DNA from: Kondoa subrosea
Taxonomy: Eukaryota
NCBI GenBank assembly: GCA_039545335.1
Contig: BCIN01000008.1
Coordinates: 1-64,000 of the forward strand
Direction: 5' to 3'
DNA length: 64,000 nucleotides
Part shown: positions 4,027 through 40,622 of the stretch, piece after piece
Numbering within the stretch: position 1 is the stretch's first letter
Layout of the letters: every line of letters starts with the position of its first letter
Position numbers and translations under genes: made by a program
Notes under the pieces: model-generated
Told to the model about the DNA's origin: nothing
Databases searched by the model: none
The model's input: only the letters and a program-made list of their open reading frames with translations

Positions 4027-4251
4027 CGCCAGGTCCCGAGGTTGCCAGTGTAGGAGCAAGTCTCGAAGGATACGAAGCGGAAGGGAAAGGCTCGTCCACT
4101 GAAGGATTCAAGCGCTGCAACACTCGACTGCAACTTGTGCAAGTGTCGGGCTTGTGTTATTCTAACTTCCTGCGTAGTATCTGCAGACTGCAATGCGAAT
4201 ACGGAGGGAGAAGACACAGCAATAACAGGACAAGCGCACCAGTCGGAGAAG

Positions 4252-16262: not shown

Positions 16263-17927
16263 ATGCATCCACGTCGAGTTCGACCTATTGCTTCACTCGT
16301 TTCATTCTTCTACCTCCAGAGCTTCGATGCGAAATTATTCGCTTCGCTGCTTCTGACGGCTCGGATATATCTGGCCGTAAGCGAAGCTTTTCAATGACCA
16401 CAGATGCTAAGTGTACTACAGTACGGCAATCGATCATCTTTGAAGCAACCTTGCGCACCTCGGACCATCTGCAGACAATCTCTCGATTGCGCCTGGTCAG
16501 TTCAGAATTCTGCGCAACTGTAGCTTGCTTTGCCCTTCGATGCATCTTCATCAACTCGGCAAAGCAACTTGGTGAATGCAAAGCTGCATCTACAGGAAGC
16601 TTCAAGCTGCTGGAGGAGCTTCATATTATGCCAGCCTTTGGGTACGAACTAGATTCGCCGCATTTAGCGTATATCTATGCACTGGTTCGCCGTCATACCG
16701 GTCTTCAAACCGTAACTATCCAGCTCAGGGAGCCGAAGCGACATGAGCATCCGGATCGTAGGAGACAAAGAACGCTCTTTGCGGAATTGCGAATTGAGTT
16801 GGAGAAACTTGGCATCAGTTGTTACTGCAGCGTAGGAAGGACTGTTTACCAATGATCTAATGTTCGGCTCTCCAACAAGCGTTCTCGCCGAGTCACTTTG
16901 TCAGGGACAGAAGATCATGCATCAGTCTTTCATTCTCATTATCTACAAGGCTTTCTAGACCACTCAAGCCTTTCTTCATACATACAAACCTTTGAGGCGA
17001 ATATCCAATGCCTAGATCTTCGATGTGTCGGCGGAAGCTCTGCTCTCCTGTGGTCACATCTGTCCCAAATCCTGTCTGCGTGTTCGGCCACAGTTACAGA
17101 ACTTCGATTGGAATTAAGAGACGATGTGGATTATCAAGGATTGCAGCAATGTGCACGACTGGCTTATCTTACGCTGGATCTATCACCAGGTCATATTCCC
17201 CTCTTCCGCTTATTTCCCTTTCCGCCGGCCTTGCAAAGCCTGCGTACGGTTTGGAACAACACGGTCAATTCCGTTATGGATATGATTCACATTGTCTCTG
17301 CCATAGAAGAGGGAATAAGCAAGGCTAAGGATTGGCAGGAAGTGGTGATCAGCACGGGAATTTGGCGAAAAGATACACAAGCAGATCATCTACTTTTCGC
17401 CGTCATGCTATCAATGCAGCAGACCAGAGATTACTTGATAACGAACGAAGCACATCGAGACGCCCTTGCAGTCGCGGCCAATCAATTGACTCGCGATCAA
17501 TTCGAACAACGACATGGGCAATACGATGAAGAACTCATTCCTCGGTACAAATGTGTCGTCTTTAGCTCATTGAAGAGTGCGGCCAAAGAGCATGGGTTGA
17601 CCCTCAGGATTTGGGCGGAACCGAATCCCTACGAAACCGAAGACACAAATGTGAGCTTAATGGCTGGCCAGAAGATCCAGATTCGTTGAATAGCTCTGCA
17701 GTACACTATCCCGGAATACTTCCCTTTGATCAAATCTTTTGGAATTGAAAGTGAAGAAAGGTCCAGGGAGCGGCAGATGCAGACTATGAAACAGCCTGAG
17801 ATTACGGATTATTTCGGTGCAGCGGCAGCTACAGGTCAGTTCAGCTTGCTGAATCCGATAATCTAGTGGGCTTACGAGCGCAATAGACTAATCTGACATA
17901 GATTACTGGATGGCACAACATTCATGA
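16263..17927 (+). CDS. F-box protein (LRR-like body) with C-terminal PIP-box-like motifs, paralogue A; apparent 1-nt frameshift near the start
   Basis: MHPRRVRPI-/-FTRFILLPPELRCEII F-box start. Introns 16377-16421, 16832-16879, 17651-17701 and 17835-17901 join ORFs 16253-16855 and 16898-17689 to the tail NYTIPEYF...QPEITDYF. Confidence 0.75.
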
Positions 17928-18175
17928 AGGTGTATAGTAACCTTCTCCCCGAGCTCGAAATTACAAGTACCGTTACTATCAGTATTTGCGAAACTTTGTT
18001 CGATCTCTTCAGACGCGCTGTCTAAATAAGTTCAATGCATGCACTGTAGACACCGTCACTTAGCGCACAAGCTTCCATACTCTCATCATTCTCGGAAGTT
18101 ACCGATCGGTAAACAAACTTCGCGTTGTCGACTCTTGTTATGAACAGTGTTTCGAAGTCTCGCTGAATATACCCG

Positions 18176-21100
18176 ATGGAGACCCTACTGAAGAGCCCGC
18201 TCAACCTTAAGACCAACAGACCCACGGGAAAGGCAGACATTCGCTGTCGGATGGACCAAGAATGTCAAAATGTCATCAAGCAATTCGCAGCCTTAGTTTC
18301 GCAGAGCACATCTTGGCTGGATGAGTACATTGACTCTACTGCAGAGAATCAGAAGAAAGGGTCAGCCTACTCTCTTACTTTGAAAGTAGAACACAGCTCA
18401 TTGTTTACTTTTTTCCCTTTCGTGTGCTACAGATCGTCATATACTCAGCTTATGAAAACACCTTCGAGACAGAAAGCAGCAGCAATGACACTTTCAGTCT
18501 TCAAGGACACCATTCAGCAAGAGAGTCCTGCTGCTCAGCGGGCTATCTTTTCTAGACCCCTCTTCCAACCTGTTCCCTCGCCAAACAAAGAGAACGATCG
18601 TCTGGCAGTCTCACCGGCTGCTGCTCGCAGTAATAGTCCAGCTAAGAAAGTCTTGTCTCCTGGTTCACCAGCTGCTCGACCTATTCTTGAACGAGCTCTA
18701 AGTCCTCGGACCAACGTAATTCAATCACCCGCTACAAACAGGCCTGCTGCAAGTCCTATTCGATACAACTCTCCCCGAGCTTTGGCTCTGTCTCCTAAAG
18801 CTTCTAGTGTTCAACATCAGCTGTATCGAGATCCAGTTGCTCCTGCTTCACCTCAAGCTCCGATTCAGCAACTCCAAGAACCAATTCAACTCGTTTCGAC
18901 ATCTACTGTCCAGAAGAAGATGGTTGAAGAAGTAGAAGACGCGCAAGAAGTCGAAGTGCTGGACGATGCGGTTCTTGAAGACGAAGTATTGACGGGCGGA
19001 TCTGCAAGCAGCTCTTTCGAAGAGGCAGCGATAGAAGCATCACTCGTCGCTCGTCCTATCAGTCAAAGTCCAGGTTTCGCTGCTAAATCAACAGCTATTC
19101 TTCAAGCCTCACCTCGTCAATCACCAAAGAAAGTTATGGCTTCTTCACCACTGAAGAATGGCTCACCTCGCTCTCTTCGTAGCAACCAAGCACCACCTAG
19201 ATCTTCTCCTGCAAATGTCAAATCTCCTTTGGCGAGTCCAGCTAAATCTGTCAGATCCATGGTTTCACCTCGTGGCATTCCTACTCCCAATCGCTCAAAA
19301 GCCCCTACTCCAGCCAAGTCGATCGAGAATATATCTACTCAATCTACTTCTGCCAAGACTTTGGAAAAGACCAGCTCATCTGAATATGCTTCCGCTTCCG
19401 AGCCAGTAGAAACAACTATTGAGTCTCAGGCCGATAGTCAAGCTTCTGTTTCTGCAGCGGCTTCTTCTCAACAAAGTGTGCCAACTAAAACGCCTGGTGG
19501 ATCGCTCTTCTCTAGCGAAAGTCGCAAAACCGCTCGAAAATCACTCGATCGCACAACAGCTCTGCCACCTTCTCCAACTTCAACCTTCCTGTCTCATAAT
19601 CCCAACCGGACTTCTCAATTCACCTTCAAAGGTTTACCTAGCAGAGAGAAGAGTCTTGGTCTGGTCCTTGGTCCTTCTTTAGCTTCCCGTAGAACTTTGA
19701 CCAGCTTGGGTCCTTCACAAAGCACAATACTTCCAGCCAGAACGCAAGAACCTCATTTCTCACAAGCGACTGAAAGTACACGCAAGCGAAAGAGTGATGT
19801 TGCCGAACCTCTCGTCAATCAAAAAGCGAAAGCCCTTCGAGTTTCTCCGCCTCCTTTACCGAAAGAAGATACTCAGCCCATTCCAGCCAAGAATAGAATT
19901 GAAGCGTTGAAGAATAAGGTCGAGAGCATGTCCAAGAGTCTTCACGGCGCAGTAGGAGCATCAAGAGCTTCTTCGTCTATTCCTATTCCTCAAGCTGCAC
20001 CTTCGCCTTCGTTCTTACGCGCCCAAAAAGCTTTCGGTGCTCCACCTCCTTCTCCTGGTTCTCCAAGCGGTTTGCGATCACCTACATTTGGCATGCCTCC
20101 TCGATCACCTTTGCATCGCAACTTCAACTTCACTGCTCCTCTAGATAATGCGACTGCTTCCAATGGACCGAAACGTCCAGCTGAATTGGTCCGCAAGTCT
20201 TCAGTGAATGATATAGTCAGAGTATTCGAATCGAGCAAACAACCTCCTGCCTCTTCAAGTACTAATCGCATTCCAGTTCGTTCACCTGTCAAATCACCTG
20301 TCAAAGCTATGGCTGCTGCTTTCAATCAGCAACATACAAGTACTACTCCTCCTGGTTCTCCTCCAATGCCTCAAGTATCGCCTGTGCATGCAAAGAAGAC
20401 AAATCCTTTATCGCCTTCTATTGCTCAAATGCCTATTGCTCAAGAACCAGCGATAAGAGAGGATGCAGACATGATCATGGAAGAAGCTGAAACTGAGGAA
20501 GAGGCAGATGATGAGGAAGAGATGATTGAAGAACCTGTTGTTCAAGTCAAGGAAATGAAGAAGGTTGAGCAGAAGAGAAGTTTCGAAGTTGAGATCATTA
20601 AGCAGAGGGAAAGAACTGTTTCTCAATACAGCAGCGCTCTTTCTCAGGTGAGCTGTTTCTCCCTTCCATTATGGAATCGATTTGATTTCGTTTGTGAGCT
20701 AGACTGAGGAATCGCAAGAATCGCAACCTCAATCTCAAGGACTTCTTTCTCAAGCTGTCTCTGCGCTGTCGAAATCGTTTGGCAGGAAGCCCATTATGTC
20801 GACTTCTGCTACTGGTTCAGTCAAAAGCATCCAAATGGCAGCTCAAGCCGCCAAAAAGGTCAGTGTATAGTCAGGTTTTGCAATATCATTCGTGCTTAAC
20901 CGGGCTTCCATGTGACAGGAACAAGAAGAACGAGATCGAAGAGCAGCAATGAAAGATTCATTGGAACAGAAACGCCGCTTAGCTGCTATTGCTAAACAAC
21001 AGGAAGAAGAACGTCAACGTTTAGTTGAGCAAGACAAGAAAGCCAAAGAGCAAGAAGCTGTTGATCGGAAAAGGAAAGAAAGAGATGATTTGGCTAGCTC

Positions 21101-22043
21101 TAGAAACACTAGCTTGGTCAATCCTCCTGCCAAGACTCTGAGAGTTAAGAGTGTCAAGGCAGGCTTCGCGGACAAATGATTAGACATAAATAGCTGACGA
21201 CACATGACAGCCCGCTGAAGAAGAACCAAACAAGAAGAGGAAAGTCGATCCGTCCGTTCCCAAAGTGGAAAAGAAGATTAATCCTCCTAGTCGACCGGTA
21301 AGCAATTGATATCTTTAATAGGATCAGATTAGGACTCATGAGCTCTCCAGGCTTCCGCGATGAGCATGGCGTCCTCTTCCCAGCATACTCATTCGAGAGC
21401 ACCTTCAACCGCTCGAGCTGTTCAACCAGAAGCTAGCAAGAAGGTCTCTTCGGTCATCAAAACAACAGCCGAAGCTTCTGCTTCTCGTCCTGCTGTCGTT
21501 CGTACTGGAGCAACCAAAATACAGATCAAGACCGTGGCTCCAGTCGCTGCACCTGCCAAGAGGGTTTCTGCTCAACCTAAAGCTATTCCTCGACCTGTTA
21601 TTGCTGCGGTTGTTGAAGAGAAGGAGATCTACGTCGAGTTGCCTGATATCGATAGCGAGTGAGTTGTACAAGATCTCAATCTCCGTGTATCAGCTCAATC
21701 CGATATCTAGATACTCTGATTCGGATGAGGAAGCTCAAGCTGCCAAAGCTGCCGCTCAACCTGATTGGACTCGATCACCTGAATTGAGAGCTGCTTTGGC
21801 TAATCAATCTCAATTCGATCCTGATCTCATCTTCGGTGCGATCCCTCCTCTACGAATGGAAGGTTTGTCTGGTGCTCTCTGTCGTGCGATTTTAGTCTGA
21901 TCGTTCGCTTTTGCACAGAAATCTTTGTTGGTCCCCAGAAACGTTTCCGTGCCAGAACCAGTTCCGCCAATTGGGCAGGACCTGATCAACTTTCTCGGAC
22001 GGAAGAGATTGAGTTTGCTAAGCGAATGGGTTATCGTGCTTGA
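18176..22043 (+). CDS. Inner centromere protein INCENP (Sli15/Pic1), chromosomal passenger complex
   Basis: SP-rich body and coiled coil. C-terminal IN-box/ARK-binding region LPDIDSEYSDSD...PDWTRSPEL...DPDLIFG...RARTSSANW. Confidence 0.9.
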
Positions 22044-22187
22044 AAAAACAAGTCTTGTATTTCTCAGTTGTATATATATTAGTACTGTTCAGTTGCATAC
22101 TATACAACTTTCGTAATTTACTTGACTCATTGTGATCAACAGATGATGGAATAACACAGACGGATATCATGATGCAATCTACGTTGA

Positions 22188-23500
22188 TTAATGCACAACT
22201 CCTTTGTGTATAGTGCCAGGGAATACGTATGCGGGTAGATCTTCCGCAATTTCTTCCTCGTTGTGATGCGTGTCCGATTGCCCTTGCAATGAATATGGAT
22301 TGGATGAATCTCTTGAATGATCATGTGTAGTAATACCGCTATGCGTTGCAGAGGGTATTGACGAAGATCTAGAAGGATTTTGCGAATGACCAAAGCCATT
22401 GAGCGGAGATTGTGATCGAGCGAGAGAAGGTTCATCTGAAAATGGGTCTTGATAGGATGCCATCAAACCGGTTGAAGCTGAAAGAGGAGGAATAGATGAA
22501 GAAGGAACCGACATCGGTGCCAAAGAATAACTTGTTATAGGAGCCATTTTAGGTGATTCTTCGTAAATGCTGTCTCCGCCTAAAGATGGTCTTCTGTTTA
22601 TCCCAAGCCCTTGTCTCCTCTTCCTCCGTCGCCGAGTCAACAGCCATATCATCACTATCAGGGCCAAAGCAGCGACACCTGCTACTGAACCAGCGATGAT
22701 GGGTGTTGATGATGTTTTCGAGCTAGATGATGCAGCTGGAGAAGAAGTGGAAGAAGGAACAGATGCTGTTGAAGAAGGTGCAGTGACTTGGAACTCAATA
22801 AAATCGATAGAGCTGTAAAGTCAATCATTAGCTCGTATGGGGTTGAAAGCAAGAGGATGCAATGCCCAACTCACAACCATAGTCCTTCTTCAGCCGTCAA
22901 ATTTCCAAGGTTTGTCATGGTAACGATGTGATGCTCGAGCGCTAGCAAAGGCGACGAGTAGGTGATCATTTGTCCTTTATAGCCAGACTTCTGCATATCG
23001 TCTGTTTCACATATTAGCTCATTGCGGACTATTGAGAGTCCGTTTACCTGGTGATAATCCTGACCAAGTACTGTAAGGACCTAGGTCTTCTCCGTCGACT
23101 GAAGGATGGGTGTTAATGCAAGTATAGCTCACTGTTGATGCGAAAGCTTCCCTGGCAAGTCATGAGGTAAGCTATGATAGTTCCTTAGCGGAAGTAGTCT
23201 CACATGATCGTTATACTAGACGTTTATCAGCTCAAATGAACAAGAAGCAAGGTCGCTGACTTACTTTGTCCGCCCATATATTGAAAGCACAGAAAGTGAA
23301 GTCGAAGGATACCTGAGCGCCAACCGTTTCCGTCACGGCGATATGGCCATCGCTGTAGTATGTTTCTTCGCGCATGAGAGCATAGACATGAGCGAATAAG
23401 AAAGCTGCTGTCGAAAGTTCGTTCGCATACGATTGGGGAAAATCCACCCTTGGCTATAGCGCAACCGCTCATTGGAGTCCTCCCATGTCACGTTGGCCAT
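22188..23500 (-). CDS. Single-pass membrane protein: N-terminal beta-sandwich-like domain, Ser/Thr linker, TM helix, cytoplasmic tail
   Basis: Starts MANVTWEDSNERLRYS; TM segment PIIAGSVAGVAALALIVMIWLL followed by RRRRKRR; multiple introns. Confidence 0.65.
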
Positions 23501-23767
23501 ACCGCTGAAGGAGAGCGCGGTATATCAAGACAAAGAACCTCTGAAAGAATAGAACAATTCGAAGAAGGCAGCACTGCCTGGGCGAAACTAGACCGCATGC
23601 TTCGATTTTATCACAGCACAACAGAGCAGCAGAAGTATCAATATGCGCGCATTGCAGCTGTCAACTACAGTAGAGGTCTGTGATGAAGTCTGCTGCATGT
23701 TTGGGGAATAAAGCTTGATTACTAAGCACGACTCAAGATCTTCCGAAGCAAGACGCAAGCTTGTACA

Positions 23768-24823
23768 ATGGAGAGGCTACGTGTAGAAGCAATGCGTCTG
23801 GTGCCACAAATGATCCAGAAACTCCTGGAAGCCGTGGAGCAAAACGATTTCCAATTCATGGCGAAGCAACATTTCATCCTGCCTGAGACTCTGTCTCTGA
23901 CAGATTCGGACCATGATATTCTCAAGTATGTGGTCTACCGAAGGATATTCTCGGAGACACCAAACGAAATAATTCAGCTGTACCAAAATGGTGACATGCA
24001 AGCCAATCCGTTACATGGAGAATTGGTCAGCTCTATAGAAGATACTGCGTGTATATCAATGGCATCAGAATGGTTGATGCAGGTTTCCAACTTCTATCGG
24101 AGTGGGCTGCCTTTCGAAACCATCAAGCGAGTTTACGAGATTTCCATATACTATGCTCTTTGGCACGCTCAACGCATGGTCACAACACTGGGGAGGGAAA
24201 TACATCTTAACAGAGCTACAACGGTACTTCGGAAGATAAGTACGGCTTTAGGCAAGCAATTGGCTGTATGCGATGCGCTTTCGATCCCATCTCAAACTCT
24301 GAACCGATGGGAACAAGCGCTGGACACAATTCGATACAAGCTCACGCTAAGCGGGGACACCAGCGATCATTGGATAGCCCTTTACGCCTCGCTCAATTAT
24401 CTGGCATTTCTATTGCGATTACCTATCAAACTCACTCAGGGTGCCGGTCATATGAATAGAATCAATACCAGATTTCTTGAACCTCTCATACGTAGTGCAC
24501 ATCTTCCCTCCGCTGCTAAACGATTTGAAGTGTTGAATCGCTTCCCGATCGCAAATCGTTTCAGACGAACAATGGTCCTCATTTGTCTGCACTGCGGCAA
24601 TAATACACGCCAGTCACCTGAACAAGCAGAGCGTTCCGAGATCGCACGCTTCTTCAAGCATTGTTCAGGGTTCGACCTTTTTTTCGGTTACATGACTATC
24701 AAGCGCTTATACCGCTTTGACAGATGCAGAACTGCAATGTACTGCTCACGGGATTGCGCTGTCGCTGACTGGGAAGCGGGGCATAAAGACAAGTGCTATA
24801 GCAAGATCAGGGACAAGCAGTAA
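23768..24823 (+). CDS. MYND-type zinc finger protein
   Basis: C-terminal CLHC...CSG/CRTAMYCSRDCAVADWEAGHKDKC. A stopless 54-nt intron (24670-24723) lies within the finger. Confidence 0.8.
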   Translation: MERLRVEAMRLVPQMIQKLLEAVEQNDFQFMAKQHFILPETLSLTDSDHDILKYVVYRRIFSETPNEIIQLYQNGDMQANPLHGELVSSIEDTACISMASEWLMQVSNFYRSGLPFETIKRVYEISIYYALWHAQRMVTTLGREIHLNRATTVLRKISTALGKQLAVCDALSIPSQTLNRWEQALDTIRYKLTLSGDTSDHWIALYASLNYLAFLLRLPIKLTQGAGHMNRINTRFLEPLIRSAHLPSAAKRFEVLNRFPIANRFRRTMVLICLHCGNNTRQSPEQAERSEIARFFKHCSGFDLFFGYMTIKRLYRFDRCRTAMYCSRDCAVADWEAGHKDKCYSKIRDKQ

Positions 24824-25103
24824 TTCGATTGGTGGAGGAGGAATCAAGGAGTCAGAAGATGAAAACAGGCTTGGGTTGACTGTCTTCTATGTCTCGTACG
24901 ACGACTATTTTCGTTCTGCGATTCTGATGTTGAATCCAATGCAGATAGTGCAATTCATCGCAATCGCTGGCACACGGTCGTTCACCCGTAAGCTGCGGAT
25001 GAGGAGGGAGGACGAGTGTTTGTGAGTAGATTTCGTAAGAACTACTTGAAACTCATGCGACTAGTTACAGATTGAAAGGACCCGGGCTCTCTCGCTTCGG
25101 ATA

Positions 25104-25599
25104 TCACCGCTCCTGGTATCGACAAATAGCTACCACTTGCGGGAATTCCTGTTGTTTCGGGTGTAATAATCCTGAAGGATTCTATGGGTACCGCGTATTC
25201 ATAAATAAAGGGTTATAGCACTGACTTGGCTGTGATTGTTCACGGTACAATCGGAAGCTGCACCCGCGTTGAAATAGCCCACAGCATGCGCAGCGTGACT
25301 AGGACAGTTGTTGGCGTGACAGTGCCATGTTTGCCTTGTCGCGTCGTACCAGTACGGCTGTTTTGGAACATCAGAACCGTTGTGGTGCGACCGAGCTATC
25401 TTACAGCATAACCGTGACAATTGACATAGCATTTGATTGCTGCTTCCTCGGTTTTATGTGCGGTTTCTTTAAATGTTCCGCATTTCTCATCCAAACAATG
25501 AAACCCGTTCTTAGATTTGGCGAAAGTCTGAGCAGGGTCTATCATCGTAGGCGGCGTTATACTAGGTTCCTGTTCAAGATTTCTGCTGTTAGATGACAT
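25104..25599 (-). CDS. Small hypothetical protein with two tandem C-x4-C-x16/18-C-x4-H motifs
   Basis: Intron 25358-25404 joins two ORFs in frame; a second intron is predicted at 25182-25225. Confidence 0.55.
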
Positions 25600-26205: not shown

Positions 26206-29200
26206 ATGGCTGACCGAGCAGCTAGGAAGGCCAAACTAGAGGAGTTGCGCGCTGCTAGGGCTGGAGATACCCGTTCTCGATCTTACAAGGTGACTACTGC
26301 ATCCAGTTTCAACGCGTTCGCTGATTTAAGAGCAGGACACAACTAATGTGGATCTATACGATGAAGTGGATGAGGAAGCTTATGCTAGCATTGTCAAGGG
26401 GAGATTGGCCGAAGACGACTTTATTGAAGACGACGATGGATCAGGTTATGTTGACAATGGCATGGAAGAAGAATGGGACAACGATGATGGCGGATCTAGT
26501 CAGGAAGAGGGAGATCGTATGCTCCTACATTTTGCTATTGCTTATACTCAGGCGTGTTGGATTAGGCAAAGGCAAGAGGCGGAATCGCAAGAAAGACGCG
26601 AAAGGCAAACCTGAACCCAAGAAAAGAGTCACTGCGACAGTCTTCTCGAAACCGAATGGGAAGGCCGCCGCTGCTGCACCTCGACCGGCTGCATTAGACA
26701 TCAATCCTTACAAGAAACAAGTGGATGTAGCCCAAGAAGCAGACTTCATGTCTTCCTTGCTAGGCAATCTAGATGATACTACTGCTACTTCCTTCCTCTC
26801 TTCGTCAACAAGTCGTAAACGCAAAACCTCACCTGAACTTCAATCAGCTAACTGTAATCCGTTACGCACTTCTACCTCTTCTTTCCGCAAACCTCGCTTT
26901 TCAAACACGCTCACACCTAGTGGTACTTCTTCACCTGATCCGTACTCTGAGCTGCTACCGACTTCAAACGGTGCTTCGTCCGATGGCGATCTACCTTCTT
27001 CAGCAAAGAAAGCTCGTCCCAGTCCTTCTCACAACATGGACAACTTCACTGATCTGTCTTTCGGCAATGATTCTTTCGACCAAGGAGATGTAGACATGGT
27101 CAAAGAAGAAGTGGACGACGATATTTTCGTCAAACCAAATCAAGTCAATACTCGACTAGCTGCTGCACCTTCTAGAAAGCTGGTCAACACCTCTTCTATC
27201 AAACCCGCTCGTCCGTTATCATTATCGCCAACTCCTGCTGCAGATAAAGCGGACGTTTCCAAAGACAACAAGAAACCGAAAGGTTTGGATTGGCGATTAG
27301 CTGCTGAAGGCGTTACTGTTTCTGAATCTGCCGATTTACCTGCCTTGGATGATCTACCCACTGCTGTTAACGGAAAGAAAGGCAAAGCCAAACAGAATGA
27401 TGCACCTTTGACAAGCAAGATCAAAGCTTTTGAATCGGACGGCGAAACTTTGAAATTCTATTGGTTGGATCATATGGAACTCAATGGTGTTGTTCATCTC
27501 TCTGGCAAAGTCCTTGATCAAGAAACTGGTAAACATGTTTCTTGCTGTCTGAGCGTAGAAGGGATTGAGAGGAATCTATTCGTTTTGCCTCGAGGCAAGA
27601 AGTCAGAAGAAGAGAAGCTAGCCAAGAAGACCAATGGAAAACCTGAAATTAAGAATAAGAAGAAAGTAAAGAAACAGATGGATTCTGATGAAGAGGAAGA
27701 GGAAGCTACTGGTTCTGAAGAGTCCGACGAAGAAGAGTCCAAAGAAGAATCAGAAGACGATGAATCTGATTATGGACCTACTTTAGATGATGTCTATGAC
27801 GATTTCGATGAAGTCAGGCAAGAAGCTGGAATTACATCTTGGGCTTCTAAAGAAGTTACGCGCAAGTATGCCTTTGAACTACCTGGCGTGCCTGCAGAGA
27901 CCAAATACCTCAAAGTGGTTTATGGCTTTGATCGTGAGTCAAAGTCATTGGTTGGCTACTTGAGCTGACAAATATTGATAGAACCTCAACTTCCCATGGA
28001 TTTGACAGGAAGAACCTTCAAACGAGTCTTTGGAACAAATACTTCTGCCTTCGAACTCTTTGTCATCAAGCGAAAGATCATGGGTCCTTGTTGGTTGGAA
28101 GTCAAGAATGCTGAACTCAGCGGGAAGGGTGTACGTTTCACATTCCTTATCTCATCGATCTAGTCTCAATCATCTCTTATTCTTATCAGGTCTCTTGGTG
28201 CAAATTGGAAGTGAAAGTCAGATCGCCAAAACATGTCAACCCTTTCAAAGACAGCGACCCAGATGCGCCTAAAGATATGCCACCCTTGACGATGATGAGT
28301 CTGAGTTTGCGAACCATAGTCAATCACAAAGAAAACAAGCGCGAAATCGTCTGCGCTACAGCTCGAGTTTGGCAAGATTGTGCGTCGTTGTCCATCACTA
28401 AAGCTTCTCTATCGTACTGAAATTATACGTACAGCGAGCTTGGAAGATACAACTCCGATCGAGAAACAAGTATGCTCCGTGCATACTGTTGTTCGACCTT
28501 TGGCAGCTTTTCCCGCTGGATTCGAAGCTTTGGCGAAAACGAAGACGCCCAAAATCAATCCTGTTAGAGCTGAGAGAGTAGTGATCAATCAGCTGTTAGG
28601 TGAGCCAATCAATCAACCATAATTCGACGCAAGATCTTATTGGGGGTACAGCAACAATACAACGCTTCGATCCTGATGTGATCATTGGTCATGAGTTCAG
28701 TGGAGTGCTTCTTGACGTCCTCTTACATCGTATGAGGGAACTCAAGGCCGATCATTGGTCAAGATTGGGTCGATTTAGACGAGATAAATGGCCAAGGCTC
28801 AAAAACGGTCTGAATTCACATTTACTCAATGGTCGACTTGTCCTGGATCTCGCTAGCGAAGGTTCAAAGGTGAGCTTCTACAAGCACCTTCAACGCAATC
28901 TGATAACACGTAATATCAGAGCATGATTGCCTCCACAACCTGGTCTTTGACCGAAATGTGCTCAACTCACCTCAAAATCGAAAGGCAAGACATCGATCCG
29001 GAAGATACGGCTGACTACTTCGATTCTGGCGCCACTACACCGAATAACTTGATGGACTTTCTACGACACTGCGAGGCTGATTCTTACTTCCAAGCTGCAA
29101 TCGCCAACAAAGTTCAAGCTCTACCTCTCACAAAGCAGTTGACTAATCTTGCTGGCAACTCTTGGTCAGTTATGTAATGCTAGACTGTTGTGGTCATTTA

Positions 29201-31689
29201 GCTAACTGTTTATATAGGAACCGAACCATTGGAGGAGGGCGAGCTGAACGAAACGAATACATTTTGCTACATGAATTTCACAAAGGCAAATATATCTGTC
29301 CAGACAAAGTGTCAAATTGGGAGAAGAAAGCCGCTGCTGCCGCTCGAGCTGCAGATCCGGAGAATGACGAGGTCGACACGTCAAAAAAGACTGGAAAGAA
29401 AGACAAATTCAAGGGTGGTCTGGTCTTCGAGCCAAAGAGAGGTCTTTGGGACAAATTCATTCTCGTCATGGACTTCAACAGTTTGTATCCTTCCATCATT
29501 CAAGAATACAACATCGATTTCACGACGGTCGAGCGGAATAGTTCAGTATGTGTTTATGCTAGATGCTTGGCTTTCACACCAATCCAGCTGCTACAGGTCG
29601 ACGAGGACAAAATCCCAAATGTGCCGACCATAGAGGAGCGTGGTGTTTTGCCGCGTCTGATTCAAACACTGGTCGAAAGGCGAAGAGCTGTCAAAGGGTT
29701 GATGAAAGACAAGTCTGCTTCAGCCGCCAAACTACTTCAAGTGAGCCTGGCCGTAAAGTACACGACTCTGGCTGACACCATGCATTCAGTATGACATCAA
29801 GCAAAAGGCGCTCAAGCTCACAGCTAACAGTATGTACGGATGTCTGGGTTTCGAAGGCTCAAGATTTTATGCTCGACCACTTGCTGCTCTCACCACATCG
29901 AAAGGTCGTGAAATTTTGACAAACACCCGAGAACTGGCCGAAAGTCTGCAGCTTGATGTGTGTTTACAGCTTCTCTTTGCGGGAGTACCTGACTCCTTTG
30001 CAGGTCATCTATGGTGATACTGATTCGGTCATGATCAACACAAATGTCACCGAAATGACAGCTGCACTACAGATTGGTAACGAATTCAAGAAGGCAGTCA
30101 ATGAGCGCTATCGTCTACTAGAAATCGATATCGATAACATCTTTCAACGCATGTTGCTTCTTCAAAAGAAGAAGTACGCTGCTGTGGAGATCAAGGAGAA
30201 TGGCACGACTAGTATGGAGATCAAAGGTCTTGATATGAAGCGCAGAGAATACTGCAATCTGTCCAAAAATGTTTCTGCGTACGTTTCACTATAAATCAGC
30301 TCGAAGTAAATTGACCTGCTTTGACCTAATTTGCAGATACGTCCTCAAGCAGATTCTTTCCGGAGAGCCGACAGAAGTCGTAGTCGAGAAGATTCATGAA
30401 TACCTCACTTCGGTAGGCAACGGAGTGCGAGAAGGCAAGATCTCCCTCGATGACTTCATCATCTGGAAAGTGAGTAAGAATGCAGAATGGGCAGCATAAC
30501 ACTGAACTGCCTGACAGCGATTGGGTAAAAACCCTCAAGACTACCCAGATGCTAAAAATCAGCCTCACGTACAAGTAGCAATGCGCCAAAAGCAGAAAGG
30601 TCAAGACTGCAAAGCCGGCGACGTAATTCCGTACATTTTCTGTCTCGGGTCAGATGGCATCAGCGCCCGATCAGCGCAAGCAGACAAAGCACATCATCCG
30701 GATGAGCTCAGAAGGGCTGATGCTACCTTAAAGATCGGTCAGCCGCGGTTCTTTGCCTCTTTGCGTGAAGACCATTGACAATTTTGTCTAGATTTCGAGC
30801 ATTACCTTTCTTTGCAAGTCCTTCCTCCGGTGGAACGTTTGTGTGATCAAATAGAAGGCACTGAAAGATCTCGCCTGGCCGAATGTCTAGGTGAACTGAA
30901 AACATCAGATCTGATTTCACATACTGAACATTACTTCAGGGCTGGACACGAGTCGATATCAACAAATCGCCGCTGGAGGAGCTGACGTAGAAAGGGAGTT
31001 CCACACTCTGGAATCGCAGATATCAGATGCAGATCGCTTCCGAGACTCTGAAGCGTTGCGAATCGCTTGCAGACATTGTCGAACGGAAACGGTCTTTTCT
31101 GGCTTGATGGACAACTCCAACCGAATGATCAGATCCATCGGTCTCATTTGTCCAAACCAAGAATGCAGTTGTCCGATCGAAATCCCTTCTCTGGCAATGC
31201 AGATCGAAAATCAAGTTCGCTCGTTCATCAATAAATTCTACGAGAGCTGGCTTCTTTGCGATGATCCATCGTGTCAGAATCGGACTCGTATGATGTCTGT
31301 GTACGGCAAGAGATGTCTGAAAGATCAATGTCGCGGCATGATGCACTACGAGGTGATTTCATTGATCATCTCTTTTAGTGCCTTACTGACTCGCTTTTAG
31401 TACACTGATTCTCGACTGTACAATCAGCTGTTGTACTTTGATAATCTCTTTGATGTGGAAAAGGCTATCAAGAAAGCTGCTGGTACAGCTTTGCAAGGTC
31501 AGTCGTCAACCTATAATTTTGTACGAGTGCTTATTGGTTGGGAATACAGAGGAGGTCCAAGCTTTAGCAGCTCATAACGCACCGAGCTTCGGTATTCTTC
31601 GACACTCTATCTCCAAATATCTCGACAGATGTGGAAGACGATATGTAGCAATGAAGGGTTTGTTCGGTTTCATGAAGATTGCAGCATAA
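26206..31689 (+). CDS. POL1: DNA polymerase alpha catalytic subunit
   Basis: N-terminal [25 protein letters not shown]; family B motifs [23 protein letters not shown] and YGDTDS; C-terminal Zn fingers. Confidence 0.98.
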
Positions 31690-32454
31690 TGTACTATAGT
31701 ATCGTTCAGAGGTCGTGTCTAAGTAATGTTTGCTCTTCTCAATGCTGTGTCGCGTTCCAAGTCGTTGCCGCTTTACTTACGTACTTCATCTCGAAGATTC
31801 AACTTGTGAACTTGTCAAACTAAGTCAGCCAATCAATCTCGTTTTTCCAGTAATTTGAACGTGGATGAGCACGCTTCTAACTCGACTGCAACTTGAGTCA
31901 TCAACTTTCTCCCTCTTGCTGGACATCTGTGAACGGGAACTTCGGAAGCAATCTTTGATTTTGTCTTGCAAGAGCGAATCCAGTGCCAATTCCGCTGTTG
32001 GCTTCCGAATCAGCACAGAAGTCTCATAGCAGCACCTCCGGCAGCCTCCAACTGTTCCATTCCCATTCATTCAGATACCTCTGTATCTGTCTTTGAATCA
32101 GTATAGATCGTGCTCGAATCTGACGCATTGATGTGACCTGTCACTCTTGAAACTGGCTAGATCTTCTCCTGTGAAAGTGTGTGGATCCTTCCTGGATCTG
32201 AAAACGCTCAACGGTCAGAGAATTTACACTGGTCTGTACTTCTGCTCGTTCATGCTCATTTGGTCCAGCGTAAGGTATCGATCTCCTTGATCGTGAAGTC
32301 TTTGCAGAGAGAAATATAGAGCGGCCAAAAGTAGCAGTTTCATCTCTTCATCCCTTTGTTCGATTATCATAGCTCAGGCTTGAATTTCATCTCTTTCTCT
32401 TCTTCCTCCTTCTTCAGCTCCATTTCTTTAGAATACAAGAAGAACCTAGTCGCT

Positions 32455-33284
32455 ATGTCTGCACCGTGAGCGTCTTCTAGAAGAACTTGGTATATAGCTA
32501 AACTAAGCTTGCTTGCGCAGACGTCCTACAAGAGTTCAAAAGCCGAAAGTCGTCAAGCCGGTAGCAGCCAAACCACTCAGCATAAGCGAACGACGAGCTT
32601 TCGCTGAGGCTGCTGTTGTACTCAAATTCGCGGAGAAGAGCTTGAATGAACCTGGCTATGAAACGAATCCTGACTTCTGGGACGAGTACCAGACGGCGAT
32701 GAAGGACACGAAAGGAGAAGATAAAAGGTTCAACGGCAACAAGAAATACCCGCTGAAGGAGCTTCAAGTGAGACTTCAGCAGATTTGCAGGCTGTGCTAA
32801 AATCGTTTCCGTCAGAGATTGCTGAATCTAAAGGTTCCTGAGTTGAAATGGTCCTGCATATGGTCCTTCCTATCCTGGGATGGCATCGTCTATTCAGGCT
32901 GCCGGCAGAGACACTGCTTTTAGCGGATCTGTGGTCAACACTCTCGGACGCCCTCATGCTGATACACAGACTTCGAACTATCATAACATTGATCCAAATC
33001 TGCTTCTAGCCTCACAACCCATGCCGACTTCTACGGGTCATATGCCATCAACCATGCTTCCACCCGGCGCGAGACCCACGATGCATCCCGCCCCTGGACC
33101 TCAATATATGGGTCCGCCGTCTCATAATATGGCTCTACTTCCTTCCCCAACGCGGCCTTTGTCGACGCCCAATTCTTTCGCTTCTGTCAATTCAAGCCAT
33201 GCTGGTCACACGCCTCCGCCTTCAGCTGGATCTCAGCGTCCTCAGAGCAGCGAATATGCCCACTGGGATTACTTACGTCACTAG
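32455..33284 (+). CDS. Hypothetical protein with Pro/Ser-rich C-terminus; apparent +1 frameshift at 32846-32848
   Basis: MSAP exon plus ORFs 32513-32800 and 32880-33284 with GT-AG introns. The frame is continuous only if one A is removed. Confidence 0.45.
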
Positions 33285-33694
33285 AGGGGAATACTTCCAC
33301 GATTTTTTTCTTCTTCTTCGTATAACTCATGCATCTTCCGTTTTGAATCCATTGTAATACATCACATATATGCACCAAACCTCTGTACCTTTTCAACCAT
33401 GGCTGCATGGTCTTCCAGCAGTATACTTCATTCTGGCCGGCAATGACTCTTTGATCTTTTCACCAAGTCTCTGAACTTGTGCTCTTGATTGCTGCTCCAG
33501 AACTATTGCCTGAAAGCTTTGAATTGTGTGCTTGTGTGGCTTGACTTGACGTACCTAGCGCATCTGACAATAGCCCACTTATTGCAAATTCGGCCTTGGT
33601 CAATTTGATGATATTTCAGATTGTGGCAATTTGCGAATAAAGCCCGCAGTGAGCTGTCTTCTTCTCTCTTACACATATATCTTCCATCACTCCA

Positions 33695-34210
33695 ATGAGC
33701 TACGAAAGTCTTACTGAAGCACAAGCTTATGCTTACAATGTCCACTTCTGCGGAGAGGTATGTAGCTTTCCACTTGACGCGTCTTTGATCAAGCTGATCG
33801 TTTCTCTCTAGTGGATCAAAAGTGTCAGTGACTCTACTGGAAGCTCTTCACCGGGCAGCCAGAGTTCAGACGAATACCTGCCTCATCATCAGAATCTTTC
33901 TGCTTATTCGATCATGTCATCCGAGATCTCTCACCTCGAGATTGCATCTCGTGCGCCTTCGCGATCATTTACTCCTTCGGTTCATTCTTGCAATGCTACC
34001 TTTATCGATCACGGCGAACCTTTGGAGCGCGCTCCTACTTTCATTGATCATGGAGAGCCTACCAAGCGCTCTCGTCGCGTCGGCAGCTATGATCGCAGAT
34101 TCGTTCTTCACACTAGCGGAACAATTTCATTGTGCGCAAGAATTTCGGCTAGGCTTGGTAAATGGATGAAAAGCAAAAAGCTGAACAGAACAAAGACTTT
34201 GGGAAGATAA
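33695..34210 (+). CDS. Hypothetical Ser-rich protein with duplicated TFIDHGEP motif
   Basis: ATG at 33695; one intron (about 33758-33812) joins in frame to ORF 33914-34210. Confidence 0.5.
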
Positions 34211-34495
34211 TGGGCAGTGGGAAGCTGGTCTGCATTGAATCGGGCAATTGTTTTGGGTTACAGTAATCAAATTGATATGTACTAGTATTGGTTGACGTAA
34301 ATGGATGTATATAGTACTTATCGTTTGGCACCTTTATTCGATCACTTCAAATCAGGTTGGCAAATGCATATGAAGCTTGACTTCGCCAACTTCCAGAATG
34401 TCAGCATACTTTCAGATTGATTACCAAATCAGCAGTTCTTCTGCACTCCAATTCCCCTTCACTTGCCGGAACACGATCATTTGCCTTTCCCAATA

Positions 34496-36460
34496 TCAAC
34501 CCAAGATCCTCTTCCCTTTACTTTTCTTCATCTCATTAGGATCACTGAATCGATGCGTCACATTCTCAACATGTTTCTTCAACCATTTAAGTCCTTCCGG
34601 TTCAATATTTCTACAATCAAGCATTTCCAACTTTTTCAATTTCAAGTTTGGTTTCTTTTCATCGTTGCCTGCTAGAACGATTTCTATCAATGGACCAGCT
34701 TTCACAGAATCGTTTGAATTGAGGGTAAGATCTTCTAAATTTGGTGTGAGGGTAGGTAAGAGTTGAATGAGTTGATCAGAGACTGGGGAACTTGATAGAT
34801 TGAGAGAATGGATATTGGAAGAAGGGGAAAGAATGTCGATAAGTGAATGATCAGAAGCGATAGGTAAGCCAACCAGAATAAGTGTATCTAGAACTGGTGA
34901 TTTAAAGATGGTTGTTGGCATATCTGCATATGCTGGCGGACAAGCTTTTGCGTAATCGATACGAAGAAGTTCCAATTTAGGTGCATCGATGTCCAAGAAC
35001 AGCTTGACCACGAAGTATTCGCACTGCTTGAGTATCAGCTTCCTCAGCAGAGGTAATTCGGTAATAGGTTTGGCTGCTAGATTTCTGCTAAAGCTTGTCA
35101 AGGGTGCTTTGATCAATGTTAGACTTCGAAGATGGGGAAGAGGTTGAGATAAGAAGCGAAGATCTGAAACTCGACCTGTAGAAGAATCGCCTTGATCATG
35201 CATAAAAGTGCTCATGTCCGGATAAGGCTGTTCGTCTGGGTCGTAATGGGGTAATTTGACCAGATGGGATGCCACAATAAGTCTTTCTAGTTGTTTGACC
35301 TTATCTGCTTTATTGTCCAGCTTATATCTTTGTCGAACGGTCGAAAAATCTTCGGTGGAGGTCGTTTGTTTGGAATCCCCCAAAGCTTGAAAGTATCTCA
35401 GATTTGGCATCTTATCACAGATAGCTTCTAGACTGAGCACTAGTGCGGGAAATGAATCATCAAGACCAGCAAAAATGAGTTGGACAACAGTTGACAAATC
35501 GAGGGACCAAACAAGAAGTTTTGTCATCAATGCTGGACCAATATAAGAAGGCAAGGACCACTCGAGGGATCCCAGCTGTCCAACCATTTTTGATGGGATA
35601 ATAGCTTCGATCTTGCTCCAATGATCTTGCCTCTGAGCTTTAATCTTTAGCGTATTGAGAGTTCGACGAGCTCCCAAACGTTGAGCGTATTCTTTTGTCT
35701 TGTATTCTATAGCTCGCTCGTTACCAGCCAAAGACAAAATTTGCCAGAAAGACGGTTCATTGAGGATAATGCGTCTCCAGGATTTGCAAACATGAGAACA
35801 GCGGATTTGGGTAGAATGTGGTAAGTACTGCATGATTTGAATGAAGAGTTCTGCTGGTAAGATTTCGGTCGTCCCGGTTGTTCCCTTGTATCCCAGTATC
35901 AGCTAGATCTCGGAAGATAACATGAAAAAGGTTACCTTCTGTAAACCTTCTACAGTAGCCAGAAGTTCGGTGAGAGTAGATGACTGCGCAATTATAAGCA
36001 AAGAGTGCATTGACGAACCCTCTGAACTAGACTTACTTTCGCACCAGCAGCATCACAAGCTTTGATTCCCGCTCGTAACACTTTCGCAGCCTGATCCAAT
36101 TTGCCAATAGCTTTATAAGCATCCGCAGCTCGTTTGTAACCCTGCTCGAAACAATTGAGATCTATACTTCCTCCAACATTGACATCGGTAATCAGAAGCG
36201 CGTACCTGCTCTGCATCTGGATTCAAGCTGATCTGAGTCTTCGCATCCAACAGAGCTTGTTTGGGAAGTCCAAGCTTGAGAGCGGTGACGCTTCTGGAAT
36301 CATAGAGCTTGAAATTGCTGCCATTCTTTGAAATTGCCTGTACTCTCGAATTGCATGAGCTCGTGAAAGTCACAGTGAGAAACTACGACGCGACCTCGTT
36401 CAAGAGATCATAAGCTCTGTGAAAGTCTTCTTGACGAAAAGCTTCCTTGATCGATTGCAT
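34496..36460 (-). CDS. TPR + F-box + LRR protein (Pof3/Dia2-like SCF substrate receptor)
   Basis: N-terminal TPRs (YDSRSVTALKLG...ALLDAK...GYKRAADAY), F-box LPAELFIQIMQYL...CSHVCKSWRRII and C-terminal LRRs. Confidence 0.85.
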
Positions 36461-36806
36461 TGATCGTTTCAAATCGAGAGGCTCATGTCAACAAAACTTC
36501 AAGACGCGAAAAAACTAGGGTACACAGGATTTTGAAGTGTATGCACAAGGTATATAAATGCATAGGGCAGAGATTAGAAACTATCACAATGCTTTGCCCT
36601 CCTTTCATGTTGCGGAAGAACGAGTTATAACATGTTGTTGTCAGTCCAAGAAGTGAATGCGAGGTGGTTTTGATCGGTCAGTGTAGGCACTGAAGAAGCG
36701 GCGGGAACGAGTTAAATCACGAATGAGAATGAAGACTCTCGGAGCTATGAGCATTCTGTTCGTAAGCAAAGATATTGCTATTCAGACATCTTAGCTCACC
36801 CTCGTC

Positions 36807-37413
36807 CTAGTCCTTCAATCGCTTGAAGAGCAAGATGTGTGGTTCTGGAAGATGACGCATACTGTTTTGAAATCATTAGCATCACGGTATAAGAGCTTCT
36901 TAACGACATACTATGCCTACAATTGAACGAATCAGCTCAAAGACGCCTACAAAGCGGCGCCGAAACTCACCTCCCAGCCAGGCGATTGTCTGATATTCAA
37001 CCCTCTCCATTCATCTTCCGTAGGTAATCGATCTTCAGGTAAATATTTGACCAACTTCGCGATGCATCAACAGGCTGATCTCGCCCCAGAACAGAGGAAG
37101 GGGACGTACGGCTTTAGGTAGAATGACATGACGGTATTCAAACTCGTCGTCAGAGTATCGAGCGCTGTAGCTGCACCAATTGAAATGAGCAAAGCTTTCG
37201 GGGGGTTTGTCGTGAGATCAGACGAACAAGATAGAATCGCTGTATTTCCTGTTACAAAACAGTCAGTGGACGTGTCATTTGATGCAATAGAGATGGAAGC
37301 GCACTCTATATCTTTCTGTCTTTGCTCCTGACACATTAGAGACGCGATCAGTTTGGGCTCAATTTACGAGCTGCGGAAATAGCAGAGCGTACAGCGTTGA
37401 ATTTCTTGCTCAT
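36807..37413 (-). CDS. CKS1: Cyclin-dependent kinase regulatory subunit (Cks1/Suc1)
   Basis: Spliced translation YSARYSDDEFEYRHVILPK...[33 protein letters not shown]; includes a 5-nt microexon (36912-36916). Confidence 0.95.
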
Positions 37414-37738
37414 GTCTGTCTCGAGGGCAATAGATCTGTGATGTGTGTTGAAACGGGCTGGCTGATTGAGTGAAAGAGAAAAACATTCGACCTTCTCAAA
37501 GATTCTGGGGAAATATTTGTATGCGAGTGTGGCTAATGGTCTGGCCGCGTAACATAAGCCATGGGACAGGATTCATGAGACTAGGGAAGAGCGCAAATAG
37601 CGCCCCTCTTGTTATCGGTAACTCCTCTTAGGAAGCTTGAATATTACTCTTGGTATCACTTGTAACACCTAGACTGTAAACAAACCTTGATGAACCTGAT
37701 TTGTACGCTCTGCCGTTGCGGCCACACTGTTCGCAATT

Positions 37739-39620
37739 TCAATATCTTAACGGAACACCAGAGTGAACCCTCGCTTCTGGGCAATCGGCCATTCAATGAT
37801 CCTCCAGGTCGTTTGTATTTGCAGCGAGCATACCCTTTCCATCTACGTCGATGCAATCTGGCGCTCTTGTAGCTAAGAAATATTCGTCAATATATTGTTG
37901 CTCCAGAAAGCGCTAGAAGACGGTATTTAGCTCAGAGGGGGAACACAAACTGCACAAACTGCATCACAGCTTACCGATGAATACGCTCGCTTTCGGCGTG
38001 TAGACGTAGAAGATGCGGAAGGAGGTCTGCAATCCGCAAATTTTGGGTAGGAAGTGAGTTGTCGCTGATTGAGCGATTGCACAAAGGATTTGTTATTCGG
38101 CGGTTGTGTATTTCCGGACGAGAAAGGTCGAGGCGGCTTGAGCTGCCTTGCAAAGAAATCTGTAATTTGATACTGAGGCGTCGAGTCAAAGGGTTAGCTC
38201 ATTCTGGCTGGAAAACGACATGCGCTTTACATTACACTTTTCCTCTTCGTAAGGATCTGCTTTGGAATTGACCTGCAGTAGAAGTCCAGCTTCAATAGCA
38301 TCCGTCTGAAAACGTTTCCAGAATGCGCGCTTGAGGAACATGATCATATCAATTGTGCTTCCACGCCGATGCCAATGCTCTTCCGATAGATATTGAGTTA
38401 TGATGGTAGCTGCATCCTGCTCAGAGGAATCTGACGACTCGATACATTGCTCGGACAATTGGAGGAAAAATTCACGATCTTCCTCTGTAGATGCTTTCCA
38501 ATCTTCTATACTGAACTGCACCCATTGCCATCGAATCCATCGCGAGTGCTTCAGCGTCATAAGAGCTTGGACGACATAGAGGTCGAACATTGATCTATCG
38601 CGAAACACAATGTGCAGATGCTCCAAGTTTTCTGGCAATAGAGTTGCCAATTTAATTTCGCCCATCGCCACGCCAGCAAAGGGCTCCAAGACCAGCTTGA
38701 TTAGTCTTGGAAAGCCACTGGAAAGATACAATTGCATATTTTCTGGGACTTCAAGCCGCAGGTATTCCAATGTGCCGGCAACTGAATTTACAAACAATAC
38801 AAAAGAATCGACGAGCTCGCCGTATTCCGACATCAAACGAATATCCAAATGGGTAGTGTTGTTAAGAATGGGCAGTGAGTCTAGGTCAATGCATCTATAA
38901 AATTTGCTGTCGCAAAAGATGGATCCATCAGATCCATAATAATCTCTCGCAAATAGATGTACTTGATGAGACGAAAGATGGGCGGGCGCCTCTGCTTTAC
39001 AGTGGGTGTGAACATCGTTGCCATCTTCTGGCGTAGAAATACAGAATTGGATACCGCAGTCAACAGCGTTTTGTATAATAATGTCGTGTATCGCCAAAGC
39101 ACTTTCTCTGGGTTCCTCTAATGCGATGCTGAGTCGGCGAAGGGAAGGGCATATCGGTAGTAGACGCCTAAGGGTATCGTGAAGTGTTGTAATTGCACCG
39201 TCTTCAAATACGCATTCGAGACTCAAGTGTAATTCATGGACATGCAGAAGTTGTCGATCGGCAAGCGATGGCTTCGAGAGACTGCAAACTTTGGACCACG
39301 ATGATGGGGCTTCTACAGATAGGTCAAGACATTGGTAGAGAAGAGGAGAGATGAAGGTATAGAATTCGCTGTTGACGAGAACTAAGCGAGCCATAGCTCT
39401 GAGATGTTCGTAAGAGACGAGAGTGTGCGGGTATGCGGATAAGTCTTGCACTATCCATACGATAGAGTCAGCAAGTATTGGTGTGGTTAACATTCTACCT
39501 ACACCCTTCAATATCAGCAGCCGCGTATGCAGCCGCCAATACAATCTCAAGCCGCAATTCCACTGGAAGCTGTCCAAAGCGAGTGAAGGACAATGGTCGA
39601 ATTCGACGAATTGGTTGCAT
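37739..39620 (-). CDS. F-box protein (LRR-like body) with C-terminal PIP-box-like motifs, paralogue B
   Basis: MQPIRRIRPLSFTRFGQLPVELRLEIV F-box. Introns at 39451-39502, 38173-38230 and 37913-37974. Tail NYQITDFF...QRQLTSYP...QQYIDEYF. The last exon is uncertain (stop at 37793 or 37739). Confidence 0.78.

Positions 39621-39999: not shown

Positions 40000-40622
<623 letters not shown>

Follow-up and report, generated by a model that had tools for sequence, protein, structure and literature searches.

The closest described counterparts of the two genes reported here are ubiquitin ligase components that bind the sliding clamp PCNA. Cdt2 (DTL), the substrate receptor of the cullin-RING ligase CRL4, has been reported to dock its ligase on PCNA beside the substrates through a PIP box (PCNA-interacting peptide) at its C terminus, and Cdt2 PIP peptides have been found to occupy all three sites of the PCNA trimer (PMC6312923). 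FBH1 (FBXO18), an F-box protein and a component of the SCF (Skp1-cullin-F-box) ligase, has been described as binding PCNA via an N-terminal PIP box as well as an APIM (PCNA-interacting motif of the AlkB homolog 2 type) (PMC12946210). In this study, we examined a 64-kb window (64,000 nucleotides, the whole stretch of DNA analyzed) on contig BCIN01000008.1 of the basidiomycete Kondoa subrosea, in which an initial annotation had pointed to two related genes on opposite strands, hereafter A (16263..17927, forward strand) and B (37793..39620, reverse strand), and had read them as F-box proteins tethered to PCNA. Their gene models were rebuilt from the raw sequence and from stop-to-stop frames. Both genes carry, behind predicted short introns, tail exons in which a motif resembling the PIP box recurs nonrandomly. 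Docking on PCNA is the best single reading of these tails, and we propose it tentatively, at somewhat less than an even chance once splicing, the identity of the partner, and the promiscuity of such motifs are all taken into account.

That A and B are real paralogues was borne out by several comparisons. A exon 3 matched B exon 2 by BLASTP with 46.2 bits (E = 3e-10; 54/221 residues identical, 24%), A exon 2 matched B at E = 1e-4 across the RL(R/V)LV(S/N)SEF block, and the N-terminal exons are 56.7% identical over 30 amino acids. Alignment of the full models with MAFFT gave 126 identical residues among 456 aligned pairs (~27%), and the blocks previously listed as common to both genes, RL(R/V)LV(S/N)SEF, WQ.V..S...W...T..D...F, and (N/D)PYE.E..N, were all found in the alignments. 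The two genes also share, as had been claimed, two intron positions in the same phase, one in phase 1 after DI(S/E)G and one in phase 0 after PYE..N. No nucleotide self-similarity was detected at an E value of 1e-5 anywhere in the window, and the duplication is therefore old. A third paralogue in the window was looked for and rejected, the next best tblastn match reaching only an E value of 0.19. Altogether, the best explanation is a fast-evolving basidiomycete gene family confined to this lineage, with A and B as its only two detectable members.

Gene B is intact, with four exons encoding 551 amino acids and no internal stop once spliced. Its exon 1 (39503..39620; reverse strand, as for all features of B) encodes MQPIRRIRPLSFTRFGQLPVELRLEI...DIEG, an F-box-like or 2EXR-like motif that stays below the Pfam threshold for 2EXR, and is followed by intron 1 (39451..39502; 52 nucleotides, phase 1, GTAGGT..TGCTGAC..TAG). 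Exon 2 (38231..39450) holds the protein body, possibly a beta/alpha solenoid of the leucine-rich repeat (LRR) type, and ends in DPYEEEKCN. Behind it, intron 2 (38173..38230; 58 nucleotides, phase 0, GTAAAG..GCTAAC..CAG) leads to tail exon 3 (37975..38172; 66 codons), and intron 3 (37913..37974; 62 nucleotides, phase 0, GTAAGC..GCTAAAT..TAG) leads to tail exon 4 (37793..37912; 39 codons plus TGA). The end at 37739 given previously for gene B was not reproduced with any in-phase GT..AG intron; without a further intron, B stops at the TGA at 37795-37793. A CKS (Cks1/Suc1) exon lies directly downstream of gene B (37035-37217, reverse strand; PF01111, E = 1.4e-8), and the 3' end of B must therefore fall within ~500 bases of the stop at 37793.

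The spliced model of gene A comprises five exons on the forward strand (..16376, 16422-16831, 16880-17650, 17702-17834, and 17902-17927), with a start that is out of frame and no internal stop from 16292 on. The first of them contains FTRFILLPPELRCEI...DISG (16292..16376), again an F-box-like or 2EXR-like motif by its likeness to B and its subthreshold Pfam 2EXR match. Intron 1 (16377..16421; 45 nucleotides, phase 1, GTAAGC..CAG) would be in frame and open if retained, and intron 2 (16832..16879; 48 nucleotides, GTAGGA..AAG) is putative. Intron 3 (17651..17701; 51 nucleotides, phase 0, GTGAGC..CAG) precedes the tail exon (17702..17834), after which a possible intron 4 (17835..17901; 67 nucleotides) would join the last exon, 17902-17927, ending in TGA; if it is not spliced, the frame closes at the TAG at 17864-17866. 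The introns of both genes are all of the GT..AG type and 45 to 67 nucleotides long, with CTAAC-, CTAAT-, or CTGAC-like branch sites in most. They appear normal for this genome, since in the MPP-beta gene of the same window (58323-59907, reverse strand), mapped with a homologue, three gaps of ~46 to 55 nucleotides separate the exon hits, with donors GTGAGC, GTGAGT, and GTTAGT.

Whether the tails belong to the proteins depends on these predicted splice sites. The apparent stops reported for the unspliced genes are present, at 17687-17689 within intron 3 of A and at 38188-38186 within intron 2 of B, and it would be very unlikely, in our judgment, that the genes simply end there (17689 and 38186), the downstream motifs being untranslated relics or products of chance. 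The clean termination of both read-through products 12 to 14 codons past the junction that follows the conserved N, together with a weak branch-site-like sequence in A intron 3, speaks for such truncated products. Once spliced, in contrast, A continues for 44 codons, and for 8 more if the last 67-nucleotide intron is used, while B continues for 66 + 39 codons; the branch site of B intron 2, GCTAAC, is of textbook form, and the first motif copy lies in frame right behind the shared phase-0 GT..AG intron in both genes. The tails also look like coding sequence. With codon-usage log-odds trained on 14 other open reading frames (ORFs) of the window (5,137 codons), the tail exons scored 0.185 (A, 17702-17834), 0.102 (B exon 3), and 0.092 (B exon 4), each the best of its six frames and each above the off-frame 95th percentile for 60-codon chunks (0.063, n = 395). 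The in-frame median being 0.206 (n = 79), this coding support is modest, and an open frame of 66, 39, or 44 codons would be expected by chance with a probability of 0.042, 0.15, or 0.12, respectively. Altogether, it is quite likely that the tails are coding, and use of the splice sites is predicted from splice signals, open frames, and codon scores. The tails are probably flexible and disordered, judging from their composition alone (36 of 53 disorder-promoting residues in tail A and 78 of 106 in tail B), and no Pfam domain was found in any of the three tail pieces.

All five motifs quoted in the initial annotation are present in these exons. In A, (N)YTIPEYF (A1, 17702-17722) and QPEITDYF (A2, 17792-17815) share the single tail exon; in B, exon 3 contains (N)YQITDFF (B1, 38172-38152) and the degenerate QRQLTSYP (B2, 38067-38044), and exon 4 contains QQYIDEYF (B3, 37900-37877). 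The recurring motif can be written [QN]-x-x-I-x-[DE]-[YF]-F, and its recurrence in the tails is nonrandom. When all 64 kb are translated in six frames, the strict pattern Q..[ILMV]..[FY][FY] has seven matches, four of which fall in the tails of A and B (read unspliced, A1 and B1 are each preceded by a Q from the acceptor CAG), and the core I[TPD][DE][FY]F has five matches in the window, four in the tails and a fifth, IKNIDEFF, in a RIO-kinase ORF. When the tails were shuffled, at least two relaxed matches arose in 6 of 200,000 shuffles for A and 42 of 200,000 for B, and at least two core matches arose in none of 200,000 for either tail. These figures, too, speak against the motifs being untranslated relics or chance occurrences, as does the variation of the motif codons between copies at synonymous sites (ATC/ATT, GAA/GAT/GAC, TAC/TAT, TTC/TTT). 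A DNA-level repeat as the source of the motif was rejected, with no self-hit at an E value of 1e-5; together with the synonymous differences, this argues that the likeness of the motifs has been kept at the protein level. Moreover, the first copy (A1, B1) directly follows the shared phase-0 intron in both genes and the last copies (A2 and B3) were aligned by MAFFT, B2 falling within an insertion, and hence two copies are ancestral.

The positions conserved across copies, namely 1 (Q/N), 4 (I), 6 (D/E), 7 (Y/F), and 8 (F), are those of the PIP box. The earlier PIP-box reading stands to this extent, in that the pattern fits and the recurrence exceeds chance in the shuffles. An acidic residue at position 6 of the PIP box has been linked to high affinity (PMC7225939), and D or E occupies this position in 4/4 good copies. 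B1 reads ITDFFAR, to be compared with VTDFFAR in the human Cdt1 peptide (PMC7225939), and the PIP peptide of Cdt2, with a reported dissociation constant of 57 nM, provides a validated box ending in YF (PMC6312923). Readings of the motif as FFAT-like or as an Atg8-interaction motif were dropped by eye, as the conserved Q/N1 and I4 fit neither as usually defined.

We propose a model in which each protein would have an F-box-like motif of the 2EXR type known from fungi at its N terminus, followed by a body for which an irregular beta/alpha solenoid rich in leucine is the probable fold. The C-terminal tail, in which disorder-promoting residues abound, would be encoded by one or two small exons, each preceded by a short intron, and would carry two (A) or three (B, one degenerate) PIP-box-like copies. 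The tail would dock the protein on the PCNA ring, and a pair of boxes with a flexible linker between them could grip two of the three clamp subunits, so that the folded body would be brought beside other clamp-bound proteins. If, in addition, the N terminus binds Skp1, clamp-bound proteins could be ubiquitinated via an SCF ligase, with a logic like that of CRL4-Cdt2. In its fullest form, A and B would be lineage-specific fungal SCF receptors that clamp two to three PCNA subunits by tandem PIP boxes of the high-affinity type, a proposal that we consider quite unlikely as a whole; it would amount to clamp-coupled proteolysis parallel to CRL4-Cdt2, in which the fast-evolving solenoid body would select the clamp-bound targets.

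A number of results weigh against PCNA docking or against this extension of it, beginning with the motifs themselves. After splicing, only two of the five copies (A2 and B3) fit the strict PIP box: among the four good copies, A1 and B1 have N in place of Q at position 1, and B2 fails, with P at position 8. In favor of docking, on the other hand, Q1 is reported not to be conserved in Y-family polymerases, which still bind PCNA (PMC7225939). The comparison of the tail motifs rests, besides, on two sequences only, those of A and B. PIP-like motifs are also described as promiscuous among the PCNA, Rev1, and Mlh1 hubs (PMC7145657). It is thus conceivable, if somewhat unlikely, that the tails are translated and the motif functional but with a different partner or role, whether through another PIP-like hub (the Rev1 C-terminal domain, Mlh1, or other) or as a PIP degron, in which case A and B would be substrates of CRL4-Cdt2 on chromatin-bound PCNA and not ligase receptors; our estimate covers the two variants jointly. 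In favor of another hub, the PIP box, the Rev1-interacting region (RIR), and the Mlh1-interacting protein (MIP) motif, grouped as PIP-like motifs in ELM, all feature a double aromatic pair on a hydrophobic helix, and many of them bind at least two hubs (PMC7145657). The conserved Q/N1 and I4 are, on the other hand, specific to the PIP box and are features of neither RIR nor MIP. The degron variant draws on the resemblance of B1 to the degron peptide of Cdt1 and on the basic residues found at +4 behind A1 (K) and B3 (R). A PIP degron combines TD at positions 5 and 6 with a basic residue at +4. A2 and B1 have TD at these positions but A or L at +4, and A1 and B3 have K and R, respectively, at +4 but PE or DE at positions 5 and 6; as no copy unites TD with a basic +4 residue, none is a full PIP degron under this usual definition.

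The searches for homologues likewise brought no support for PCNA docking. None was found in a word-indexed search of 5.8 billion proteins with B exon 2, by phmmer over 1.84 billion representative proteins, or with a two-sequence (A + B) profile at E ≤ 1, and in two metagenome-contig scans, 124 + 162 pattern matches yielded none that was confirmed by tblastn. Among solved structures searched by sequence, the best match was unrelated (E = 0.19). The MPP-beta ORF (58458-59261) helps to place these results, its best named matches showing 79 to 80% identity and being spread over many Agaricomycetes orders, with one unnamed metagenome protein at 89%, which indicates that this basidiomycete lineage is apparently poorly represented in public proteomes. 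Since A and B themselves align with only 46 bits and no close relative has been sequenced, a lack of homologues is expected and says little.

The state of gene A is a further weakness of the case for PCNA docking. Its N terminus had been given as MHPRRVRPI.FTRF and as shared with B; the likeness to B holds, but the dot conceals a frameshift. The ATG and the nine codons encoding MHPRRVRPI (16263..16291) are read in frame 0 and FTRF...ELRCEI in frame 2, so that the two parts are out of register by one base, with the shift falling somewhere in 16284-16291. In the DNA alignment of the gene starts, A shows one 3-base gap and one 1-base gap relative to B, and the FTRF frame of A contains no ATG downstream of its upstream stop at 16229-16231. 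As assembled, A can therefore not yield a full protein from its ancestral start; in this assembly the one-base shift after codon 9 has probably put the gene out of action, unless the sequence is misassembled at this point, and A is either a recent pseudogene or a gene with an assembly indel at its start. A also contains an in-frame TGA (16853-16855) that is removed only by the putative 48-nucleotide intron 2, which has no counterpart in B, and its exon 2 has a codon score of -0.133, which is not the best of its six frames. With a frameshifted start and a poor exon 2 score, one of the two witnesses may thus be decaying.

The segment 16251-16380 (forward strand) aligns with 39632-39499 (reverse strand); between the ATG and the end of the FTRF codons, 34 of the 44 alignment columns are identical, far above the ~27% protein identity elsewhere. 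This suggests, for the N-terminal ~40 bases, either that the peptide or its mRNA is under strong constraint or that a short tract has undergone gene conversion.

Carried further, decay would mean that neither locus has a function today, both being decaying orphans or pseudogenes, which the frameshift in A, the failure of the searches to find a homologue, and the low codon scores of the main exons (that of A exon 2, given above, and 0.006 in B exon 2) could suggest. We regard this as improbable, as B, with its three introns, keeps an open frame for all of its 551 codons, and the copies are old, yet show a single frame break, in A, and have kept their motifs and intron positions. Nor does the lack of homologues count for much here, even the MPP-beta ORF having no named relative above 80% identity.

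The N terminus and the body bear on the link to SCF ligases, which is for the present a lead only. The initial annotation had labeled the family F-box/LRR; no Pfam F-box or LRR match was found in the pieces of A and B, and what remains of the label are leads, namely subthreshold 2EXR matches, Atlas labels, and a low-confidence fold. The best Pfam family was 2EXR (PF20150; gathering cutoff, 24.8 bits), with 17.8 bits for B exon 1 and 19.3 bits for A 16286-16375; the 182-amino-acid read-through of A reached 19.2 bits along profile positions 1 to 66 of 94. All three scores are below the cutoff. Among points unfavorable to the ligase link, F-box families (PF00646, PF12937, and PF13013) gave no match at E ≤ 1 on B exons 1 and 2 and the N-terminal pieces of A, and none at E ≤ 10 on the A read-through, while the same models, as a positive control, found the 468-amino-acid ORF at 34496-35902 (reverse strand; PF12937, E = 1e-11; PF00646, E = 4.3e-9). 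This test is weak, because the domain was split by an intron in the B queries and interrupted by 15 retained-intron residues in that of A. Kinship of B with this F-box ORF, which lies 2.3 kb from it, was rejected (best BLASTP E value, 1.4).

The remaining evidence on the fold is mixed. ESM-Atlas neighbors of B exon 2 were fungal F-box or F-box-like clusters (score, 0.97; 155/256 features shared; family shares, 13 to 97%), and those of the A N terminus bore DUF7730, 2EXR, or F-box-like_2 labels (score, 0.93); by the tool's own calibration such labels are leads only, and most of the neighbors are automatically named F-box proteins. Read by eye, the LP.ELR.EI start looks like the first helix of an F-box and the RL.LV.SEF block like later ones. 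Strands and helices alternate in the AlphaFold2 model of B exon 2, built from an alignment with A as the sole further sequence, but its confidence is low (pLDDT, 46.9), and Foldseek returned no match at E ≤ 0.001 for this model, two results that add to the points unfavorable to the ligase link; at rank 2, amid unrelated barrels, stood the F-box/LRR receptor TIR1 (E = 0.017). An F-box-like plus LRR-like layout is thus a plausible candidate reading. Alternatively, and on the unlikely side in our view, the proteins would dock on PCNA but would have no working F-box; they would be adaptors of the 2EXR type, or regulators that occupy the clamp, and would be unconnected with SCF. The subthreshold 2EXR matches and the silence of the F-box models, which readily detect the nearby ORF, would suit such proteins, and the papers listed in a literature search on 2EXR were unrelated; the helix-like LP.ELR.EI and RL.LV.SEF blocks, the names of the Atlas neighbors, and the weakness of the Pfam test with intron-split or intron-retaining pieces count on the other side.

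The genes around A and B were identified from their domains. Between them lies the catalytic subunit of DNA polymerase alpha (26325-31400, forward strand), with DNA_pol_B at 29147-29794 (E = 2.9e-34) and a zinc finger at 30915-31400 (E = 7.4e-39); the 547-amino-acid ORF at 26325-27968, which has no Pfam match, may be the N-terminal part of this polymerase. Just downstream of gene A, 18167-21900 (forward strand) contains an 846-amino-acid Ser/Pro-rich ORF followed by an INCENP ARK-binding box (21364-21900; E = 5.2e-15), and is probably one INCENP/Sli15-type gene. The window also contains an XPG_N nuclease (4054-5091, forward strand), a RIO kinase (7165-7917, reverse strand), and a core histone exon (40099-40314, reverse strand). 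The neighborhood is thus rich in cell-cycle and replication genes, including those for polymerase alpha, INCENP, and CKS, which in a eukaryote is probably a coincidence.

At present, A and B represent a two-member orphan family from one genome, with one member frameshifted, and the value of our study lies in a well-defined and cheaply testable hypothesis and not in a result. Provided that the N terminus and the tail both function as proposed, the family would provide a second, independently evolved route for placing a cullin-RING ligase on the sliding clamp, by an SCF-type receptor instead of CRL4-Cdt2. The tandem boxes would then be a natural test case for the multivalent occupation of the PCNA trimer, and the family would offer a first way into the function of the large uncharacterized fungal 2EXR and F-box-like expansions.

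Compared with canonical PIP clients such as Cdt1, with its N-terminal PIP degron, A2 and B3 fit Q-x-x-[ILMV]-x-x-[FY]-[FY] and B1 shares TDFFAR with the reported human Cdt1 peptide (PMC7225939), whereas A1 and B1 begin with N and no copy in A or B has both degron features. Cdt2 resembles the proposed proteins as a cullin-RING receptor with a long C-terminal extension carrying a PIP box that ends in YF; unlike them, it is a WD40 DDB1- and CUL4-associated factor of CUL4-DDB1, not F-box-like and with no sequence relation to A or B, and one PIP box is described for it (PMC6312923) as opposed to the two or three copies found here. FBH1 is also an F-box protein with two PCNA-binding motifs, but it is a UvrD-type helicase whose N-terminal PIP box doubles as a noncanonical degron (PMC12946210). 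In A and B a helicase domain is lacking, and the boxes stand in tandem at the C terminus. The fungal 2EXR, DUF7730, and F-box-like_2 families (PF20150, PF24864, and PF13013) share with them the N-terminal F..LP.ELR..I motif, subthreshold 2EXR being the best Pfam match; they differ in that A and B stay below the gathering cutoff and that the neighbor clusters listed are mostly from Ascomycota, as opposed to a basidiomycete here. We know of no PIP-like tail in these families, although no search aimed at one was made, and among the papers listed in a literature search on F-box proteins, PIP boxes, PCNA, and SCF, no nonhelicase F-box-like family with tandem C-terminal boxes turned up. The claim of the initial annotation that such a layout had no described precedent was nevertheless too strong, both Cdt2 and FBH1 being already known to dock on PCNA via a PIP box. 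In the light of these two precedents, the layout proposed for A and B varies a known principle and does not introduce a new one.

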